Shown one piece after another: positions 2,928 to 31,721 of a stretch of 32,944 bases of DNA. This DNA comes from a virus (Duplodnaviria > Heunggongvirae > Uroviricota > Caudoviricetes). The stretch's first letter is position 1, and the number at the start of each line of letters is the position of its first letter. The stretch lies in IMG/VR virus record IMGVR_UViG_2648501787_000007, one strand, 5' to 3'. The translations under genes were made by a program, and so were the position numbers. The notes below the pieces were generated by a model. That model had not been told where the DNA came from. It did no database searches and saw only the letters and a list, made by a program, of their open reading frames with translations.

Positions 2928-3626
2928 TTACTGCGAAAGTTTGTTAATGGAAAGGAAGCCGCCAAAGTTGCCGACGTTATTGCGGAACTTACAACCGCTC
3001 AGGCATTTGCTGCATTTATCCTTCGTGATATCGGACGTTGGCTGGTCATATTCATCCGCGACCGCCGGACCGTGATAACCGCACTCATCGCCGCGATAGG
3101 TCCAGGTGCAGGTGTTGGCCAGCATGATACGTCCCGGAAAAACAGCGCCGTCCGTTTCCGTCGGCGTGGACAGTACAAAAGAGGCACTCACCGCGCTCAG
3201 TTCGCTGCACTGCTCAATGCGCCAGCGGCTGATCACCTCCTGCTCCGGATCGGCGTCACTGTTTCCGTTGACGAAGTTCACCGCATCCAGAAAACGGGCG
3301 TAAACCTTACGCCGGACCACCGTTCCGCCGACCAGACTCTGCAGATCTTCCGCCATCCCGGTGACCATACCGTACAGGTTAGAAACCGTCAGCGTGGGGC
3401 GCGTACTGGTGCCTTTGCCATTCAGTTCAAAACCACTCCCCTGAATGGGATACGGCTGATACTGTCGCCCCTGCCAGGTGACCGGCTCACCTTTTTCGTT
3501 CTGCTCATTACAGAAAAAATAACGTTCTCCACCGACCTCTGTCAGATCGATTTCCCAAAGCACCACGCTGGCCGACTGCTCCGCACGGGTGCATTCATTC
3601 AGTGTTTCCTGCCGGATATCCTGCAT
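2928..3626 (-). CDS. L: Tail tip assembly protein L
   Basis: 232-aa ORF MQDIRQETLNECTRAEQSASVVLWEIDLTEVGGERYFF..., matches lambda L in sequence and length. Confidence 0.95.
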   Translation of the reverse strand: MQDIRQETLNECTRAEQSASVVLWEIDLTEVGGERYFFCNEQNEKGEPVTWQGRQYQPYPIQGSGFELNGKGTSTRPTLTVSNLYGMVTGMAEDLQSLVGGTVVRRKVYARFLDAVNFVNGNSDADPEQEVISRWRIEQCSELSAVSASFVLSTPTETDGAVFPGRIMLANTCTWTYRGDECGYHGPAVADEYDQPTSDITKDKCSKCLSGCKFRNNVGNFGGFLSINKLSQ

Positions 3627-3955
3627 CAGTTCACCACCTGTTCAAACTCTGCGCTGAACTCAACACGCAGCATACTGACCCGCGACGACCATTTTGCGCA
3701 GGTCACCTTTATCTGCCGCCACTCATAAGGCGGCGTCCACAGAAAGGCTTTCCAGCCCCCGTGCTCAGCCAGAAACGACTCAAGCGCCGTGGCCTCCCAA
3801 CGGGGAACAGAAAGCGTCACGCTGTACGTTTTCAGGTCGGCATTCAGCCCGGCAGGCGCTCGCTGGGAATAGCCATCACCAAAGCGCACCTTTCTTACGG
3901 AAGGGGCCGAAGCCACATCCATACCGGGTTTCACTTTCCAGCGGAAGGTTTTCAT
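3626..3955 (-). CDS. M: Tail tip protein M
   Basis: 109-aa ORF MKTFRWKVKPGMDVASAPSVRKVRFGDGYSQRAPAGLN..., matches lambda M. Confidence 0.95.
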   Translation of the reverse strand: MKTFRWKVKPGMDVASAPSVRKVRFGDGYSQRAPAGLNADLKTYSVTLSVPRWEATALESFLAEHGGWKAFLWTPPYEWRQIKVTCAKWSSRVSMLRVEFSAEFEQVVN

Positions 3956-6513
3956 CGTCCACCTCCGGAGAACAGACCACCATCGCGCATCTGCCCGGTC
4001 ACAACATCCATTGCCGCCTTACGGGCTACGTCATAAACCGCCTTCAGCGCCTGTGGCCCTATCTGACCGTTCGTGCCGTCGTTGTTAATCACCACATGGT
4101 TATTCTGCTCAAACGTCCCGGACGCCTGCGAGCGGCTGTCCGCCATGCTGCCCGGTGTACCGACATAACCGCCGGTGGCATAGCCGCGCATCAGCCGGTA
4201 GAGATTTCCCACGCCAATCCGGCTGGTTGCCTCCTTCGTGAAGACAAATTCACCACGGTGAACAATCCCCGCTGGCTCATATTTGCCGCCGGTTCCCGTA
4301 AATCCTCCGGTTGCAAAATGGAATTTCGCCGCAGCGGCCTGAATGGCTGTACCGCCTGACGCGGATGCGCCGCCACCAACAGCCCCGCCAATGGCGCTGC
4401 CGATACTCCCGACAATCCCCACCATTGCCTGCTTAAGCAGAATTTCTGTCATCATGGACAGCACGGAACGGGTGAAGCTGCGCCAGTTCTGCTCACTGCC
4501 GGTCAGCATCGCCGCCATATTCTGTGCAATACCATCAAAGGTCTGCGTGGCTGCACTTTTTACCTGCGACATACTGTCCGTGGCGCTCTCTTCCCACTCA
4601 CTCCAGCCGGACTTCAGGCCTGCCATCCAGCTCCCGCGAAGCTGGTCTTCAGCCGCCCAGGTCTTTTTCTGCTCTGACATGACGTTATTCAGCGCCAGCG
4701 GATTATCGCCATACTGTTCCTTCAGGCGCTGTTCCGTGGCTTCCCGTTCTGCCTGCCGGTCAGTCAGTCCCCGGCTTTTCGCATCAATGGCGGCCCGTTT
4801 TGCCCGTTGCTGCTGTGCGAATTTATCCGCCTGCTGCGCCAGCGCGTTCAGGCGCTCCTGATACGTAACCTTGTCGCCAAGTGCAGCCAGCTGGCGTTTG
4901 TACTCCAGCGTCTCATCTTTATGCGCCAGCAGGGATTTCTCCTGTGCAGACAGCTGGCGACGTTGCGCCGCCTCCTCCAGTACCGCGAACTGACTCTCCG
5001 CCTTCCACAAATCCCGGCGCTGCTGGCTGATTTTCTCATTTGCTCCGGCATGCTTCTCCAGCGTCCGGAGTTCAGCCTGAAGCGTCAGCAGGGCAGCATG
5101 AGCACTGTCTTCCTGACGATCGCCCGCAGACACCTTCACGCCGGACTGTTTCGGCTTTTTCAGCGTCGCTTCATAGTCCTTTTTCGCCGCCGCCATCAGC
5201 GTGTTGTAATCTGCCTGCAGAATTTTCCCGTCCTTCAGTGCCTTGTTCAGTTCTTCCTGACGGGCGGTATATTTCTCCAGCGGCGTCTGCAGCCGTTCGT
5301 AAGCTTTCTGCGCCTCTTCGGTATATTTCAGCCGTGACGCTTCAGTATCGCTCTGCTGCTGCGCATTTTTGTCCTGTTGACTCTGCTGTTCAGCCTTCTT
5401 TCTCGCGGCTTCAAGCGCAAGACGGGCCTTTTCACGATCATCCCAGTAACGCGCCCGCGCTTCATCGTTAACAAAATAATCATCCTTGCGCAGACTCCAG
5501 ATGTCGTCCGCTTTCTTAAACGCAGCCTCTGCCTTAATCAGCATCTCCTGAGCGGTATCAGGACGACCAATATCCAGCACCGCATCCCACATGGATTTGA
5601 ATGCCCGTGCTGTCCTGTCTGCCCAGGTCTCCAGCGTACCCATGTTCTCTTTCAGGCGGCGGGTCTGGTCATCAAATCCTTTCGTCGCGGCCTCGTTCGC
5701 CGCCTGCAATGCCCCGGCTTCATCGCCGGAACGCTGCAACTGAGCAACATACGCAATCTGCTCCGCCGTCACGTTATGGAACTGGCGTGCCATCGCTGTC
5801 AGCCCTGACGTCGGGTCTGTGGTCAGCTTCCCGAAGGCTTCAGCGACCTTGTCCACCTCCACGCCGGATGCAGAGGAGAAACGCGCCACACTCTGGCTGA
5901 TGGATGCAATCTGAGCCTCACCGCTTACTCCCGCCTTAACCAGTGCGCTGAGTGACTCGCTGGTCTGGTTAAACGTCAGCCCTGCCGCCTGCCCGGCTCT
6001 GGACAGGACCAGCATACGATCTGCCGTCAGACCCGACTGATTGCCGGAAAGGACCAGCGTTTTGTTGAAATCGGACAGGGTTGAGTTGCCCTGATACCAG
6101 GCATACGCCAGCGCACCGGTCGCCACCGCCAGCGAGGTGGCCCCGACCATCGGCAGGGTGATCGCACCGGCAAGCCCCCTGAACATGGGGATCATCCCGC
6201 CGAAGGAGTCCTTCACCTGACCACCCTGTTGCAGCAGGATCAGCCACGGACTTTGCCCGCCTGCAAGCTGCGTGGCCACGTCGGTGAACTGCGCAGGCAG
6301 CATACGCATGGCAGCTTTATACTGCCCGACGGAAATCCCCGCTTTCTGTGCAGCCAGTGCCTGTCGCCTCAGCGACTGTTCAACGACTGCCGCTGTTTTT
6401 TTCGCATCACTTTCCGTACCGGAAAAATGACGCCTGACTCTGGCCATCTGCTCGTCAAATCTGGCCGCATCCAGACTTAAATCAACGACCAGATCGCCTA
6501 CCGGTTCAGCCAT
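3952..6513 (-). CDS. H: Tail tape measure protein H
   Basis: 853-aa ORF MAEPVGDLVVDLSLDAARFDEQMARVRRHF..., coiled-coil and Gly-rich C-terminus, same length as lambda H. Confidence 0.97.
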   Translation of the reverse strand: MAEPVGDLVVDLSLDAARFDEQMARVRRHFSGTESDAKKTAAVVEQSLRRQALAAQKAGISVGQYKAAMRMLPAQFTDVATQLAGGQSPWLILLQQGGQVKDSFGGMIPMFRGLAGAITLPMVGATSLAVATGALAYAWYQGNSTLSDFNKTLVLSGNQSGLTADRMLVLSRAGQAAGLTFNQTSESLSALVKAGVSGEAQIASISQSVARFSSASGVEVDKVAEAFGKLTTDPTSGLTAMARQFHNVTAEQIAYVAQLQRSGDEAGALQAANEAATKGFDDQTRRLKENMGTLETWADRTARAFKSMWDAVLDIGRPDTAQEMLIKAEAAFKKADDIWSLRKDDYFVNDEARARYWDDREKARLALEAARKKAEQQSQQDKNAQQQSDTEASRLKYTEEAQKAYERLQTPLEKYTARQEELNKALKDGKILQADYNTLMAAAKKDYEATLKKPKQSGVKVSAGDRQEDSAHAALLTLQAELRTLEKHAGANEKISQQRRDLWKAESQFAVLEEAAQRRQLSAQEKSLLAHKDETLEYKRQLAALGDKVTYQERLNALAQQADKFAQQQRAKRAAIDAKSRGLTDRQAEREATEQRLKEQYGDNPLALNNVMSEQKKTWAAEDQLRGSWMAGLKSGWSEWEESATDSMSQVKSAATQTFDGIAQNMAAMLTGSEQNWRSFTRSVLSMMTEILLKQAMVGIVGSIGSAIGGAVGGGASASGGTAIQAAAAKFHFATGGFTGTGGKYEPAGIVHRGEFVFTKEATSRIGVGNLYRLMRGYATGGYVGTPGSMADSRSQASGTFEQNNHVVINNDGTNGQIGPQALKAVYDVARKAAMDVVTGQMRDGGLFSGGGR

Positions 6514-16864: not shown

Positions 16865-17060
16865 TGTTCATTCCACGGACAAAAACAGAGAAAGGAAACG
16901 ACAGAAGCCAAAAAGCCCGTTTTCAGCACCTGTCGTTTCCTTTCTTTTTAGAGGGTGTTTTAAATAAAAACATTAAGTTACGACGAAGAAGAACGGAAAC
17001 GCCTTAAACCGGAAAATTTTCATAAATAGCGAAAACCCGCGCGCCTTCCGCCCCGTAACG
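16865..17060 (-). other. cos: cos region: cosN near 17042-17053 plus cosB terminase-binding region upstream of Nu1
   Basis: Minus strand reads ...CGTTACG GGGCGGAAGGCG CGCGGGTTTTCGCTATTTATGAAAATTTTCCGGTTTAAGGCGTTTCCGTTCTTCTTCG..., nearly identical to the lambda left-end/cosB sequence as recalled. Confidence 0.7.
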
Positions 17061-27412: not shown

Positions 27413-28338
27413 AGCTCCACCCCGTAAATCCAGTCAGTGTTCGTCAGGTCGAGTTTTGGTTTTCCGGCTGTCACGCCAGCCTGTTGCTTGTTACGGTTGA
27501 TTTCGAGCTGGGTCCACTTGTCGCGTAGTTTGGCCGGACTCAGCACGTTACCGGACCAGAAGTTGTCCTGGCAGGCCCAGCGGAACAGCACGCACATGTC
27601 GCGGTGGTTACGTCCGTCACGTTCACGCATCAGGCGGATATCGTTAGCCCACCCTGCAAAATTCGGTTTTCTGGCTGATGGCGCGATGGTCTTCACCATG
27701 TCAAACATCCACTCTGCGGCAGTCAGGTCTTCTGCTGTCCCCCACTTGCTGCCGCTCTGAATCGCAGCATCCGGTTTCACCACAGGAAGGGCATTTTCTG
27801 GCTGGTCAGAGGATTCGTCAGAATTCTCGGACGAAAAAGGTTTTATATTGTCTTTTGTTAGTTTGTCTTTTGTGTTTACCTGATTCGGGTAAGTGCCTTT
27901 ACCTGATTTGGGTAAACTTTTCTTACCTGATTCAGGTAAATTTACCTCTTTCAGGTAAACTTTATTTTTCTTACCTGATTCGGGTAATGTTGACCATTCA
28001 CTGACCACATTATTGATGCCGATATTCCGCCCGCTCTGAATAAGAATCCCACGCTTTACCAGAACACTTTTTGCAGCAGAACACTTGTGCGGCAATATCC
28101 CGGTTAATTCGGAAAGTTGCTCGTTGCTAACCCAATCCAGTTTTTTATTAAAGCCATATGTTTTGCGCATGACAGCCAGAAAGACCAGAAGCTGGTGCTG
28201 TGTTAATCCGGCCAGCATCACAGCTTCCAGCAACTCATTTGCAATGCGCGTATAACCATCATCGAGATCTGCCACGCGCGGCTCCTTTTGTGCCGCATCC
28301 GGCACTGGAAAATTGAATATCTCAGCAGTGTTTGCCAT
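27409..28338 (-). CDS. O: Replication initiator O (start taken at MANTAEIF with GGAGG Shine-Dalgarno; ORF open to 28428)
   Basis: ORF contains ...VADLDDGY...KTYG(F/W)NK...SEW... resembling lambda O; the ori iterons lie inside the gene. Confidence 0.9.
   Translation of the reverse strand: MANTAEIFNFPVPDAAQKEPRVADLDDGYTRIANELLEAVMLAGLTQHQLLVFLAVMRKTYGFNKKLDWVSNEQLSELTGILPHKCSAAKSVLVKRGILIQSGRNIGINNVVSEWSTLPESGKKNKVYLKEVNLPESGKKSLPKSGKGTYPNQVNTKDKLTKDNIKPFSSENSDESSDQPENALPVVKPDAAIQSGSKWGTAEDLTAAEWMFDMVKTIAPSARKPNFAGWANDIRLMRERDGRNHRDMCVLFRWACQDNFWSGNVLSPAKLRDKWTQLEINRNKQQAGVTAGKPKLDLTNTDWIYGVEL
27875..27986. repeat. Replication origin iterons: five copies of a 17-bp palindromic O-binding site TTACCTGATTCGGGTAA, followed by an AT-rich tract
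   Basis: Direct repeats at about 27875, 27898, 27922, 27941 and 27970 with 1-4 mismatches, inside the O coding sequence as in lambda ori. Confidence 0.8.
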
Positions 28339-28994: not shown

Positions 28995-29222
28995 TTAGGC
29001 GGCAGAATTACTCGCGTTAAACAATGGTGCGAGGTCGGGACGAATATCTGCTGGTTTAATCTTTCCACCAGTGGCTGAGACAATTTTCATTACATAGCGG
29101 GCATCAATTCCGCCACCGTGTAGCCAACGCCAAACAGTGGGCTGGGCTACACCGCATAGATCTGCCAGTCGCTTTTGACTACCTGTAATACTGATTGCGA
29201 GTTGAATGGTTTGATTTGTCAT
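28995..29222 (-). CDS. Cro-like repressor (YdaS-type HTH), ATG at 29222
   Basis: MTNQTIQLAISITGSQKRLADLCGVAQPTVWRWLHGGGIDARYVMKIVSATGGKIKPADIRPDL...; divergent from the cI-like gene across an operator region; the ORF track starts at TTG 29228. Confidence 0.6.
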   Translation of the reverse strand: MTNQTIQLAISITGSQKRLADLCGVAQPTVWRWLHGGGIDARYVMKIVSATGGKIKPADIRPDLAPLFNASNSAA

Positions 29223-29228
29223 TATCAA

Positions 29229-29296
29229 TTCCTATTGGTATTGCAATGAATGAATAATAGCAATGAGTATTAATCCAAGCAATAGCAAAACGTGTT
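29229..29296. promoter_or_regulatory. Right operator region (OR-like) with three related sites ATTGCAAT / ATAGCAAT / ATAGCAAA between cro-like and cI-like genes
   Basis: Repeats at about 29240, 29257 and 29282; the same CAATAGCAAT core recurs at the OL-like region near 31678 and 31703. Confidence 0.5.
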
Positions 29297-29332: not shown

Positions 29333-30025
29333 ATGAAAAAAGAAACTCTTGCTGATCGCTTAAACCTAGCGATGGAACAATCTGGAATGTCTCAAGGCGC
29401 TCTTGCAAAGGCGTCTGGCGTAGCTCAACCCACAATCTGGAGACTGACAAGCGGCAACGCGCGCGGCTCAACAAAAATTGTTGAAATAGCTAATGCATTG
29501 GGTGTTCGAACAGAATGGCTCTCATCAGGCATAGGCCCGATGAGAAATGACGGTCAACAATCAGGGAAGCCTGCTGTCAGCCATTCCAAATACTTCAAAA
29601 TTGACGTTCTTGATATAGAAGTCAGTGCCGGGCCGGGAGTCATCAACCGTGAGTTTGTAGAAGTTCTACGCTCGGTTGAGTACTCGTTTGACGATGCTCG
29701 TCACATGTTCGATGGCAGGAAGGCAGAAAATATCCGCATCATTAACGTGCGTGGTGACAGCATGTCAGGAACGATCGAACCAGGTGATCTGCTGTTCGTT
29801 GATATCACGGTTAAATCTTTCGACGGTGATGGTATCTATGCATTTCTGTACGACGACACCGCCCATGTAAAGCGCCTGCAAATGATGAAGGATAAACTGC
29901 TGGTTATCTCTGATAACAAGAGCTACTCACCGTGGGATCCTATCGAGAAAGACGAGATGAACCGGGTGTTTATCTTCGGGAAAGTTATTGGGAGCATGCC
30001 GCAGACCTACAGGAAGCATGGGTAG
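29333..30025 (+). CDS. CI-type prophage repressor (N-terminal HTH plus C-terminal S24 LexA-like autopeptidase)
   Basis: MKKETLADRLNLAMEQSGMSQGALAKASGVAQPTIWRL... HTH, then GDSM (catalytic Ser) and a conserved Lys in HVKRLQ; the ORF track starts at an upstream TTG 29297. Confidence 0.85.
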   Translation: MKKETLADRLNLAMEQSGMSQGALAKASGVAQPTIWRLTSGNARGSTKIVEIANALGVRTEWLSSGIGPMRNDGQQSGKPAVSHSKYFKIDVLDIEVSAGPGVINREFVEVLRSVEYSFDDARHMFDGRKAENIRIINVRGDSMSGTIEPGDLLFVDITVKSFDGDGIYAFLYDDTAHVKRLQMMKDKLLVISDNKSYSPWDPIEKDEMNRVFIFGKVIGSMPQTYRKHG

Positions 30026-30060
30026 GTAGTATGTAAAGAATTACCTTTGGTTGATTTGTA

Positions 30061-30090
30061 ATAGCTACCGATTACGTTATCGGTAGCTAT
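30061..30090 (+). terminator. Perfect 12-bp stem hairpin (ATAGCTACCGAT-TACGTT-ATCGGTAGCTAT) 36 nt after the cI stop; terminator/attenuator or RNA processing site
   Basis: Inverted repeat read directly; followed by AAGAAATTTTTATGTCTTT. Confidence 0.35.
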
Positions 30091-30364
30091 AAGAAATTTT
30101 TATGTCTTTACTGTGTTTATTTATTCAATACTAGTTGGACTATAGCAATGAAAGATAACAGACAAAACTATACTTTTTGGGCAACTGGTTTTATTTGAAA
30201 AAGACAAAAGCCAGTCTCTATTAGAGCTTAGTGATAATGTTAAATTTTATGACATTAACTCCATCACGTCTAATGATATAATTATTGATGGAGATAAACG
30301 TAGTGACAAAAAAAGAGAGTTTGTAGATTCAATTTTATATTTTGGTGTACTAAACAACCATGTC

Positions 30365-30991
30365 ATGATCGTTCAATCCACATCGCTTCGAGCAAGGGAG
30401 CTTGAGGCGCATTTGAATTGGCTAATTAATACATTCACAGATGAAAAAGAATCTGTGTTAATGCTTCAAGATAAGCCATCCGAAGAAACGATGAAAAAAA
30501 TGGAGAAAGCACCAGCCAAGAGCATAAAAATTGGTGGATTACCCATTACTTCAGAAGTTAAAAATTCAGAGAACCAAACACCCTCCTTTTCAAATGGTTC
30601 GGTGAAGACAATAAAATACCGCCCAATAGGGAAAGGAGGTGCGCTACTAAAAGCATTTTTTGGCGATAACTGGGCAAATGATATAAACATTAAAGATTCA
30701 TTAGATGAGGCCAATTTACAAGTAAGCCTCGAGATTACATACTTCAGAAAAACAAATGATAGCGGTCAAGCTGTTATAGACAGTATTGCTACCTCACTAC
30801 GACATCTAGATGAGGATGATATTAGCATCAAACTTCAAGGCGGTGGGGAAATAACGGGAAAAGAGATAAAATTATCCGGAAAAATTAGCGTTGAACATAA
30901 CAATGGCATTATTGATGAAAATGATTTATTCTTAAAAATGCATAAGTGGCTGTTCTCAAAACTTGATGCCGGAGAATTGGTTGCAAAATAA
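30365..30991 (+). CDS. Hypothetical cytoplasmic protein in the rexA position; frame is open upstream to 30152 and may be a frameshifted ~280-aa gene starting at ATG 30148
   Basis: 208-aa ORF MIVQSTSLRARELEAHLNWLINTFTDEKESVLMLQDK...; AT-rich; no Shine-Dalgarno before 30365; 71 stop-free in-frame codons upstream. Confidence 0.5.
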   Translation: MIVQSTSLRARELEAHLNWLINTFTDEKESVLMLQDKPSEETMKKMEKAPAKSIKIGGLPITSEVKNSENQTPSFSNGSVKTIKYRPIGKGGALLKAFFGDNWANDINIKDSLDEANLQVSLEITYFRKTNDSGQAVIDSIATSLRHLDEDDISIKLQGGGEITGKEIKLSGKISVEHNNGIIDENDLFLKMHKWLFSKLDAGELVAK

Positions 30992-31012
30992 CCTACCAAA
31001 AGGAGGGCGATA

Positions 31013-31519
31013 ATGAAATCGAACATCATCCACCTTATTGGTATGTTGGTCTTCTATGTTGCTGGTTACTTTTTGTTCAAGTCAGCATTGGGCTATATTA
31101 CACCGGGTGTTGTCCTAACAGCTCCGTGGGCTGTGGTTGGACTCATGCAATTGCCATTATCATATTGTATACAAGCCATTTTTAAGGCAAATGAGGCCAA
31201 TGACCACTCGTCTTTAACCCCTAGTGAGGTTAGGCGATTAGTGCCAATAGTCAAATCCAAGAGACTGAAATTGGTTTTATTATTAGCTTTCTATGTATTT
31301 TCAACTTTGTTTGTAATCTTGGGGTTAATAGCAAGCACAAATGATCAAGCCCTACTCTTCAGGGTCTTAAAAATTTCAGGTGGATTACTCTTTATTTCTC
31401 TCTATACCAGTGTATTCGTTCATAAAATAATGGTTGAGCTTCAAGAGTTTAAAGCGTTATTAAACCGAAGAGAATCAGAGAAGAAGGAAAGAGAGTCACT
31501 CCTTGATAGATTAAAATGA
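31013..31519 (+). CDS. Hypothetical 4-TM membrane protein in the rexB position
   Basis: 168-aa ORF with four hydrophobic segments and a charged C-terminal tail (RRESEKKERESLLDRLK); strong AGGAGG Shine-Dalgarno; 21 nt after the preceding ORF. Confidence 0.65.
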   Translation: MKSNIIHLIGMLVFYVAGYFLFKSALGYITPGVVLTAPWAVVGLMQLPLSYCIQAIFKANEANDHSSLTPSEVRRLVPIVKSKRLKLVLLLAFYVFSTLFVILGLIASTNDQALLFRVLKISGGLLFISLYTSVFVHKIMVELQEFKALLNRRESEKKERESLLDRLK

Positions 31520-31527
31520 CCCCCCTC

Positions 31528-31554
31528 CCCGGCCGTCGTGCCGGGTTTTCTTTT
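31528..31554 (+). terminator. Intrinsic terminator ending the cI/rex-like operon (CCCGGC-CGTCGT-GCCGGG followed by TTTTCTTTT)
   Basis: GC-rich hairpin plus T-tract 9 nt after the stop of the membrane-protein gene. Confidence 0.7.
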
Positions 31555-31639
31555 GCCTCCCCTCATCACACACCGTTCAAAAAACCACCATGCCCCTGCT
31601 TCAGTTATCGCTATGCGATGCAAGTCACAAAATTAATTC

Positions 31640-31721
31640 TTTTTGCTATCAAACATTTAATATCAAAACACATCAGTCAATAGCAATAAGTATTGATATC
31701 ACCAATAGCAATAGCTATTAT
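31640..31721 (+). promoter_or_regulatory. OL/pL-like region: -35 TTGATA (31693-31698), 17-bp spacer, -10 TATTAT (31716-31721), with CAATAGCAAT operator repeats at about 31678 and 31703 and an inverted TTGCTAT at about 31643
   Basis: Read directly; the operator core is the same as in the OR-like region. Confidence 0.5.

Follow-up and report, generated by a model that had tools for sequence, protein, structure and literature searches.

The window, by which we mean the whole 32,944-nt stretch of DNA that was analysed, is a lambdoid prophage that hardly differs from Escherichia phage Perceval, which resides in E. coli LF82 as a prophage. The hairpin considered here lies within the 123-nt leader that runs from the cI repressor gene to a cassette of two genes, A and B, and is located 57 nt ahead of the start of gene A. 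The features around it, in plus-strand order, are these.

29227-29296: three operator-like sites at OR, from a motif search
29333-30025, plus strand: cI repressor with HTH_3 and Peptidase_S24 domains; stop codon TAG at 30023-30025
30026-30060, plus strand: 35-nt spacer from the cI stop to the hairpin, with which the cassette-specific leader begins
30148-30991, plus strand: gene A (phrog_3482), inactivated in the window and encoding 340 aa when intact in relatives
31013-31519, plus strand: gene B, a hydrophobic membrane protein of 168 aa at the RexB position
31528-31555, plus strand: tImm-like intrinsic terminator, called by the terminator scan, with stem CCCGGCCGTCGTGCCGGG at 31528-31545 and then TTTTCTTTTG
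31635-31719: three operator-like sites at OL, from a motif search

The order cI-gene A-gene B-tImm-like terminator-OL is laid out like the cI-rexA-rexB-TIMM-OL region of phage lambda, in which cI-rexA-rexB is transcribed from PRM, PLIT serves rexB and TIMM stands at the end (bioRxiv 10.1101/2021.04.19.439022). The tImm-like terminator sequence is also present after the cI region of phage Turner. The first-pass annotation had placed the hairpin between the repressor gene and a rex-position cassette, and this placement holds on either side, with a cI gene of the HTH and S24 type upstream and the downstream genes situated between cI and the tImm-like terminator and OL. The cI gene shares homology with those of more than 2,000 other E. 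coli prophages and of 17 phages as far as position 30025, the end of the cI stop codon and no further, and the spacer and hairpin thus belong to the cassette module rather than to cI. Among phages that share the cI C-terminus, unrelated sequence follows the stop and no comparable hairpin was found. Alignment to loci that bear a linker (described below) suggests that the spacer at 30026-30060 may be what is left, in decayed form, of a cI 3' end together with linker.

The family of gene A counts about 130 members, uncharacterised proteins of Gammaproteobacteria, and in many prophages gene A takes the same rex position with its gene B partner, behind different repressors. In the window, gene A has lost 179 bp between ACAAAA repeats (around 30161-30167) relative to Perceval and E. 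coli FHI_NMBU_03, and the resulting frameshift leaves a stub of 16 codons, the next in-frame ATG being at 30365. A query with the deletion junction listed ten E. coli genomes, all with intact gene A. Searches of Pfam, PADLOC and the PDB (the last with the family profile) gave no sequence match to gene A. An AlphaFold model built on a 41-sequence alignment (pLDDT 70, pTM 0.67) was compared with the PDB by Foldseek, and the top match, which was also the only one below 0.001, was lambda RexA (8twq; E 9.6e-4, probability 0.97, TM only 0.28-0.33). Gene B is hydrophobic over its 168 aa, and no sequence similarity to RexB was found. The structural match of the gene A model, the hydrophobicity of gene B, the RexA/RexB-type position between cI and a TIMM-like terminator and the expression pattern described below together suggest that the cassette (30148-31519 in the window, 3349-4899 in locus L001) may be a very remote Rex-like (RexA/RexB) pair.

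Structure and rarity of the hairpin

The hairpin and its immediate surroundings comprise the following elements.

30053-30098, plus strand: extended imperfect helix, made up of the core stem, six further A-U or G-U pairs and two 1x1 mismatches
30061-30072, plus strand: 5' arm ATAGCTACCGAT, from sequence read, repeat finder and stem count
30073-30078, plus strand: loop TACGTT, from sequence read and RNA folding
30079-30090, plus strand: 3' arm ATCGGTAGCTAT, from sequence read and repeat finder
30098-30134, plus strand: T-rich tract beginning TTTTATGTCTTTACTGTGTTTATTTATTC, downstream of the hairpin, from sequence read
1,180,040-1,180,069 of the LF82 chromosome, minus strand: copy of the hairpin

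Sequence read and repeat finder agree with the first-pass annotation that positions 30061-30090 of the plus strand form a perfect 12-bp inverted repeat, ATAGCTACCGAT-TACGTT-ATCGGTAGCTAT, in which 12 of 12 pairs are of Watson-Crick type and the loop has 6 nt. From the cI stop (TAG 30023-30025) it is 36 nt to the first base of the stem, also as annotated. Five of the 12 pairs are G-C, none is G-U, and the base of the stem is rich in A-U. The repeat finder encloses the hairpin in a larger repeat, I2, with 22-nt arms of 86 % complementarity (30054-30075 and 30076-30097). The AT-rich setting that had been reported is borne out by a GC content of 37 % across 30026-31600, as compared with 50.7 % for the whole window.

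The description of the repeat as unusually long proved apt, for the hairpin is the sole perfect stem of at least 10 bp with a loop of 3-10 nt in the 32,944 nt of the window. First-order Markov shuffles yield 0.023 stems of 12 bp per window, and only 1.3 % of the shuffled windows contain one or more. The RNA folds with -18.7 to -18.9 kcal/mol (z = -5.6) on either strand, and the pair probabilities in a 300-nt context fold are 0.91-0.999. Given this rarity in shuffled sequence and this stability of the fold, the hairpin is real and lies beyond chance. Extension of the helix to 30053-30098 changes the free energy from -18.7 to -20.7 kcal/mol, the probability of the outer pairs being 0.63-0.70, and the extended duplex, 46 nt from end to end, consists of 18 pairs and two 1x1 internal mismatches.

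A T-rich stretch after the hairpin had likewise been annotated. It is present, yet it is offset from the perfect stem, whose 3' flank reads AAGAAAUUUUU: the hexamer AAGAAA adjoins the stem and the T-run (AAGAAATTTTTATGTCTTTA) begins 6 nt after it. Because of this offset the hairpin was rejected as a canonical intrinsic terminator, for which the U-tract would stand within 0-2 nt of the stem; adjacency is reached only if the weak imperfect extension forms. A TransTermHP-style tail score, with a usual cut-off of -2.5, was -1.65 for the core stem, -4.3 to -4.75 for the extended helix and -5.11 for the tImm-like site, and the terminator scan of the window called the tImm-like site and not the hairpin. 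A looser, home-made hairpin-plus-tail criterion returned about 75 hits in the window and, being that non-specific, carries little weight.

Two other repeats of the window were noted in passing. Its longest inverted repeat, at 16889-16945, has 26-nt arms that are 85 % complementary (about -17 to -22 kcal/mol), is flanked by A-runs and T-runs on both strands and has the look of a terminator working in both directions. Inside an O-like replication gene, repeats of the TTACCTGATTCAGGTAA type cluster at 27898-27987 and resemble origin iterons as in lambda.

Expression across the cI-cassette junction

Strain LF82 carries the identical hairpin, and its published transcriptome (GEO GSE154648) gives access to the activity of the locus. 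Perceval cI was there expressed 11-fold, and the gene B product ("transmembrane protein") 81-fold, above the prophage background, and gene A was not among the listed expressed genes (PMC9928086). The gene-level values in Table 1 and Tables S1/S4 of that study, expressed as log2(fpkm+5), with five conditions and two replicates per condition, are as follows (PMC9928086).

cI: BLB 6.23/6.35; B1 7.98/8.10; B6 7.05/7.19; MB1 7.84/7.90; MB6 6.67/6.83
gene A: BLB 5.19/4.15; B1 7.42/7.75; B6 9.59/9.57; MB1 6.95/6.93; MB6 6.48/6.39
gene B: BLB 9.66/8.44; B1 9.09/9.26; B6 10.19/10.36; MB1 9.49/9.64; MB6 8.96/8.95

Gene A was below cI in four of the five conditions, at about 0.2-0.9 times its level (log2 differences of -0.19 to -2.2; in overnight LB, 27 as against 78 normalised reads), and in B6 it reached about 5.5 times the level of cI. 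With a ratio of gene A to cI that varies from 0.2 to about 5.5, the cassette is not simply co-expressed with the repressor. Gene B exceeded both gene A and cI in all five conditions and is the most highly transcribed Perceval gene in LF82. This gene-level pattern makes it clear that the cassette is served by its own promoters. One strong candidate is a promoter-like site inside gene A at 30255-30282 on the plus strand (TTAACT, a 16-nt spacer, TATAAT and an extended TG), and further candidates occur near the 3' end of gene A; between the hairpin and the start of gene A, no sigma-70-like promoter was found. The site at 30255-30282 could explain the condition-dependent read counts of gene A in LF82.

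The first-pass annotation had considered that the hairpin might uncouple the cassette from repressor transcription or act as a stability element. The variable ratio of cassette to cI message in LF82 is compatible with this proposal; these data place no 3' end at the hairpin, and the cassette has its own promoters. The LF82 data fit a leaky barrier after cI, and as they are gene-level data the effect is not assignable to the hairpin as such. The structure, position and rarity of the hairpin are shown, as are the uncoupled message levels per gene; that the hairpin causes any of the uncoupling is what we infer.

The reading we favour, and hold tentatively, is that the hairpin is an intercistronic RNA stem-loop with the role of a weak attenuator or of a barrier to 3' decay. 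The palindrome would be transcribed in the PRM or PRE message reading through cI, and a very stable stem-loop would fold in the untranslated spacer between cI and gene A. It could then work as a leaky barrier in two ways: RNA polymerase may pause or weakly terminate at the U-rich tract that follows, and the stem-loop may block 3'-to-5' exonucleases, leaving the cI part of the message to survive longer than the AU-rich part from the cassette. Expression of the cassette would in that case come mainly from its own promoters, in the way that lambda rexB is expressed from PLIT. In favour of such a barrier, the stem-loop exists, would rarely arise by chance and dominates the fold thermodynamically, and a stem of such stability will form in any transcript leaving cI. 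In the cI-cassette transcription unit it occupies the sense strand, with 35 nt separating it from the cI stop and 57 nt from the start of gene A, and the extension to 30053-30098, for a gain of 2 kcal/mol, brings the helix up to the U-rich tail and the tail score to -4.3 to -4.75. The level of gene A below cI in four of five LF82 conditions agrees with it, as does the lambda precedent of a cI-rexA-rexB unit transcribed from PRM with PLIT and TIMM (bioRxiv 10.1101/2021.04.19.439022).

Several of the observations already given weigh against the RNA barrier. The U-tract is kept from the stem by AAGAAA, the stem base is A-U rich, the extension includes two mismatches, the terminator scan is negative and the loose criterion that accepts hairpin plus tail does so some 75 times in the window. 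The 12 Watson-Crick pairs without a single G-U are what would be expected of a palindrome arising at the level of DNA, and the gene-level RNA-seq can be explained by promoters and decay without any hairpin. Further counterweight comes from the distribution of the hairpin, considered in the following.

Distribution and origin of the palindrome

The hairpin is present in 42 of 5,426 complete E. coli genomes, at one locus each and in constant context. Its sequence is identical in all 42, in the IMG/VR copies and in four metagenome copies (the latter from a single metagenome scan whose matches were mostly chance), and the 123-nt spacer is at least 99 % identical across the E. coli copies. The only polymorphism of the spacer is an additional A at 30110 (CTTTAACTG), outside the hairpin, seen in four E. 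coli genomes out of the 42 and in one metagenome contig. A tiny open reading frame of 10 codons at 30102-30134 was discarded as a gene, not being credible when the additional A shifts its frame. Since all copies of the hairpin are identical, they offer no covariation in support of an RNA structure and no variation from which selection could be read.

Among 59 distinct regions upstream of gene A homologues, the 12-bp hairpin occurs in the Perceval type only. The 58 other leaders lack it, their best perfect stems having 4-8 bp apart from one AT-only stem of 11 bp, and the leaders of L012 and L015, whose cassettes are 81-82 % identical, fold no better than shuffled sequence. Searches of genome contigs with the protein and with a protein alignment found no relative. 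No structure is conserved across the homologous leaders with compensatory changes. The hairpin is thus lineage-specific and not needed by the cassette, and its absence from the homologous cassettes, as well as from behind the same cI C-terminus in other phages, weakens the claim of an important function. More distant homologues of gene A (73 % identical; L030/L031 at about 520-600, and L032/L033) have a GTG start and different upstream hairpins of their own, for example GTTGATAATTTA...TAAATATCAAC followed by TTTTT, with one apparent compensatory difference between the two locus pairs.

What the loci with cassettes at 81-82 % identity have in place of the hairpin is a conserved linker of about 35 nt, CGGCAAGGTGTTCTGGTCGGCGCATAGCTGGTA, which lies shortly after the stop of very different repressors and just before variable rex-position cassettes. 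In lambda it is found at 37,190-37,226 (1690-1727 of L163, on the minus strand of that locus) and in L012 at 2911-2940, and it is also present in phages 434, HK544, mEpX1, VT1-Sakai, SfI, ev243 and HK639. The linker pattern was retrieved from 62-72 IMG/VR contigs (loci L164-L235), 5-60 nt after the repressor stop. The repressors ahead of it are lambda cI-like (34-100 % identity), of the window's cI type (45 %) or non-S24, and at least 10 unrelated genes stand directly behind it, rexA and the gene A family among them; homology breaks off right after ...CATAGCTGGTA.

The leaders of the closest cassette homologues (L012, L015 and L034) begin like the lambda cI-rexA spacer, GGTGTTCTGGTCGGCGCATAGCTGATA, and align with the window from the 3' arm of the hairpin onward, GTTGGTAGCTAC there corresponding to ATCGGTAGCTAT here; the 5' arm has no counterpart in this register. 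In a second register it is the 5' arm that aligns with the 3' end of the linker. The linker pattern TCTGGTNNNCGCATAGNTGNTA has no match in the window itself and aligns partially in the two registers, one of which gives identity at about 13 of 24 positions. About 19 nt of the palindrome, beyond the linker-like arm, have no counterpart in the related leaders or in the linker. As the palindrome occupies the linker position, with one arm linker-like and the remainder lacking a counterpart, the sequence comparison indicates that it is a derived feature, made at a recombination junction. The event that formed it would have been a template switch or an inverted duplication.

The main rival to the RNA barrier is built on this origin. 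It holds that the hairpin is a functionless scar, the by-product of a DNA event that joined the cassette to this type of cI (a template switch or snap-back that turned the linker end into a perfect inverted repeat, for example, or an insertion of about 19 nt), and that it has survived for no other reason than the youth and near-clonality of the whole module. We consider the scar possible, if somewhat unlikely. The joint is mosaic, the homology to more than 2,000 E. coli cI genes ending at the cI stop; of the two arms, a single one can be matched to related leaders or the linker, the remainder being confined to the lineage; and loci with cassettes at 81-82 % identity carry the linker, not a strong hairpin, where the window has the palindrome. 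The perfect pairing, all of it Watson-Crick, the monomorphic sequence in 42 genomes and in metagenomes, and homologous cassettes that do without the hairpin are all as a scar would have them. Other loci also bear signs of recombination at this junction. Remnants of a cI 3' end (cctgaagagacgtttgggtag, gaagcatgggtagctagc) are stacked with small membrane-protein reading frames between cI and the cassette at 2344-3000 of L015, and such remnants occur just after the linker in L173, L183 and others. Tandem remnants of this kind at several loci look like scars and are a sign that recombination between repressor and cassette has been repeated. Against a scar without function, a hairpin of -18.7 kcal/mol in a transcribed spacer is not physically inert and will impede exonucleases and may pause polymerase. 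Moreover, with two alignment registers possible the mutational path is not reconstructable, and although E. coli tends not to maintain long perfect palindromes stably, no copy of the hairpin is disrupted.

The linker could itself be a recombination linker or a functional element. If the latter, the palindrome might be its strengthened functional substitute, both serving as insulator or processing elements by which unrelated defence-type cassettes are plugged in without disturbance of the repressor, and at the same time as homology for their exchange. We regard this as improbable. A possible 6-bp linker stem, which contains G-U, shows one compensatory change from G-C to A-U and has a pair broken in 16 of 72 contigs.

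Further candidate roles and known systems

Processing by RNase III or another endonuclease, which would split the cI message from that of the cassette in the manner of the lambda sib and N-leader sites, is an unlikely role for the hairpin; an RNase III element was also among the options of the first-pass annotation. The extended duplex of 18 pairs over 46 nt, interrupted by two 1x1 internal mismatches, and its location between two cistrons with differing mRNA levels would suit such a site, a substrate of RNase III having about two helical turns of duplex RNA. The perfect duplex, however, amounts to only 12 bp, to which the extension adds only 2 kcal/mol, and neither conservation nor an Rfam match lends support. 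The best Rfam matches scored 14-19 bits against thresholds of 40-117 (E > 1), and a known RNA family was rejected because none came near its threshold.

We attach an equally low likelihood to a DNA operator, at which a dimeric regulator of host or phage would recognise the 30-bp palindrome and thereby govern a cassette promoter. As DNA the element is perfectly two-fold symmetric, its centre (central CG, one T.T mismatch) comes close to being palindromic as well, and binding of this kind would explain why gene A mRNA rises about 30-fold from LB overnight to B6 with cI little changed. The protein-binding palindrome that the first-pass annotation had offered as an option nevertheless fares poorly. 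The operator motif of the phage, AATAGCAATNAGTATT, when searched in the window with up to three mismatches, gave 8 hits (0.97 expected), confined to 29187-29296 and 31635-31719 and accounting for three sites at OR and three at OL, and the hairpin was not matched. Elsewhere in the window its half-site recurs no more often than chance would allow, and on these two results a cI/Cro operator was rejected. There is, in addition, no gene for a DNA-binding regulator in the cassette, no sigma-70-like promoter in 30026-30147 (the nearest, at 30255-30282, is inside gene A), and no such palindrome in related cassettes. A dispersed repeat or mobile element, of the REP/BIME type or as MITE ends, was also dismissed, the hairpin having a single locus per genome and no second copy in the window; searches of E. 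coli genomes and phages showed it in this context alone, and outside the Perceval-type phage, a pattern search of IMG/VR returned only unrelated chance hairpins with other loops and flanks. It is very improbable that the hairpin is an efficient intrinsic terminator bringing the cI transcript to a complete end: a stable hairpin does come soon after the stop codon with T-rich DNA downstream, but the tail next to the stem reads AAGAAA and scores -1.65, where the usual cut-off is -2.5, the scan misses the hairpin while detecting the tImm-like site, and gene A mRNA is at 0.5-0.9 times cI in several conditions.

On the whole, the hairpin is an ordinary, single-lineage element with no sign of an unknown mechanism, and it is best filed as an uncharacterised intercistronic stem-loop or junction scar. 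If it dampens read-through or stabilises the cI message, it would add one more case of prophages balancing their repressor against potentially toxic accessory cassettes, which would be useful to know and not surprising. The rex position emerges as a site of cassette exchange, flanked by the conserved linker towards cI and by the tImm terminator at its far end, and the linker and the Rex-like cassette family are more promising leads than the hairpin.

Comparison with known systems places the hairpin among several partial analogues. It shares with lambda TIMM and other Rho-independent terminators a stable stem a short distance after a stop codon, U-rich sequence downstream and location on the sense strand of a PRM unit; TIMM, however, stands at the end of its unit, whereas the hairpin is inside the unit and a separate TIMM-like terminator is found at 31528-31545. 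Intercistronic stem-loops can act as barriers to 3' exonucleases, REP in malE-malF being an example. The hairpin resembles such barriers in being stable and placed between two cistrons, the upstream mRNA being usually more abundant than the downstream one; REP-type barriers belong to a dispersed family, and the hairpin is single-copy. The RNase III sites of lambda at sib and in the N leader are, like the extended helix, long imperfect duplexes in an untranslated part of a phage transcript, but the helix has only 12 perfect pairs plus 6 weak ones and no sequence relation to them. Quasipalindrome correction works by template switching, and the window likewise shows a perfect inverted repeat in which one arm resembles the ancestral sequence and the other is new, although that ancestral sequence was no obvious quasipalindrome. 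For expression, the parallel is with lambda rexB, which is boosted by PLIT just as gene B in LF82 is always the highest of the three genes. By position the hairpin has a counterpart in the post-cI linker of lambda, 434 and others, which takes the same place as the hairpin and whose 3' end aligns with one hairpin arm; where the linker forms at most a weak 6-bp, G-U-containing hairpin, the window has a strong perfect palindrome that retains little linker identity.
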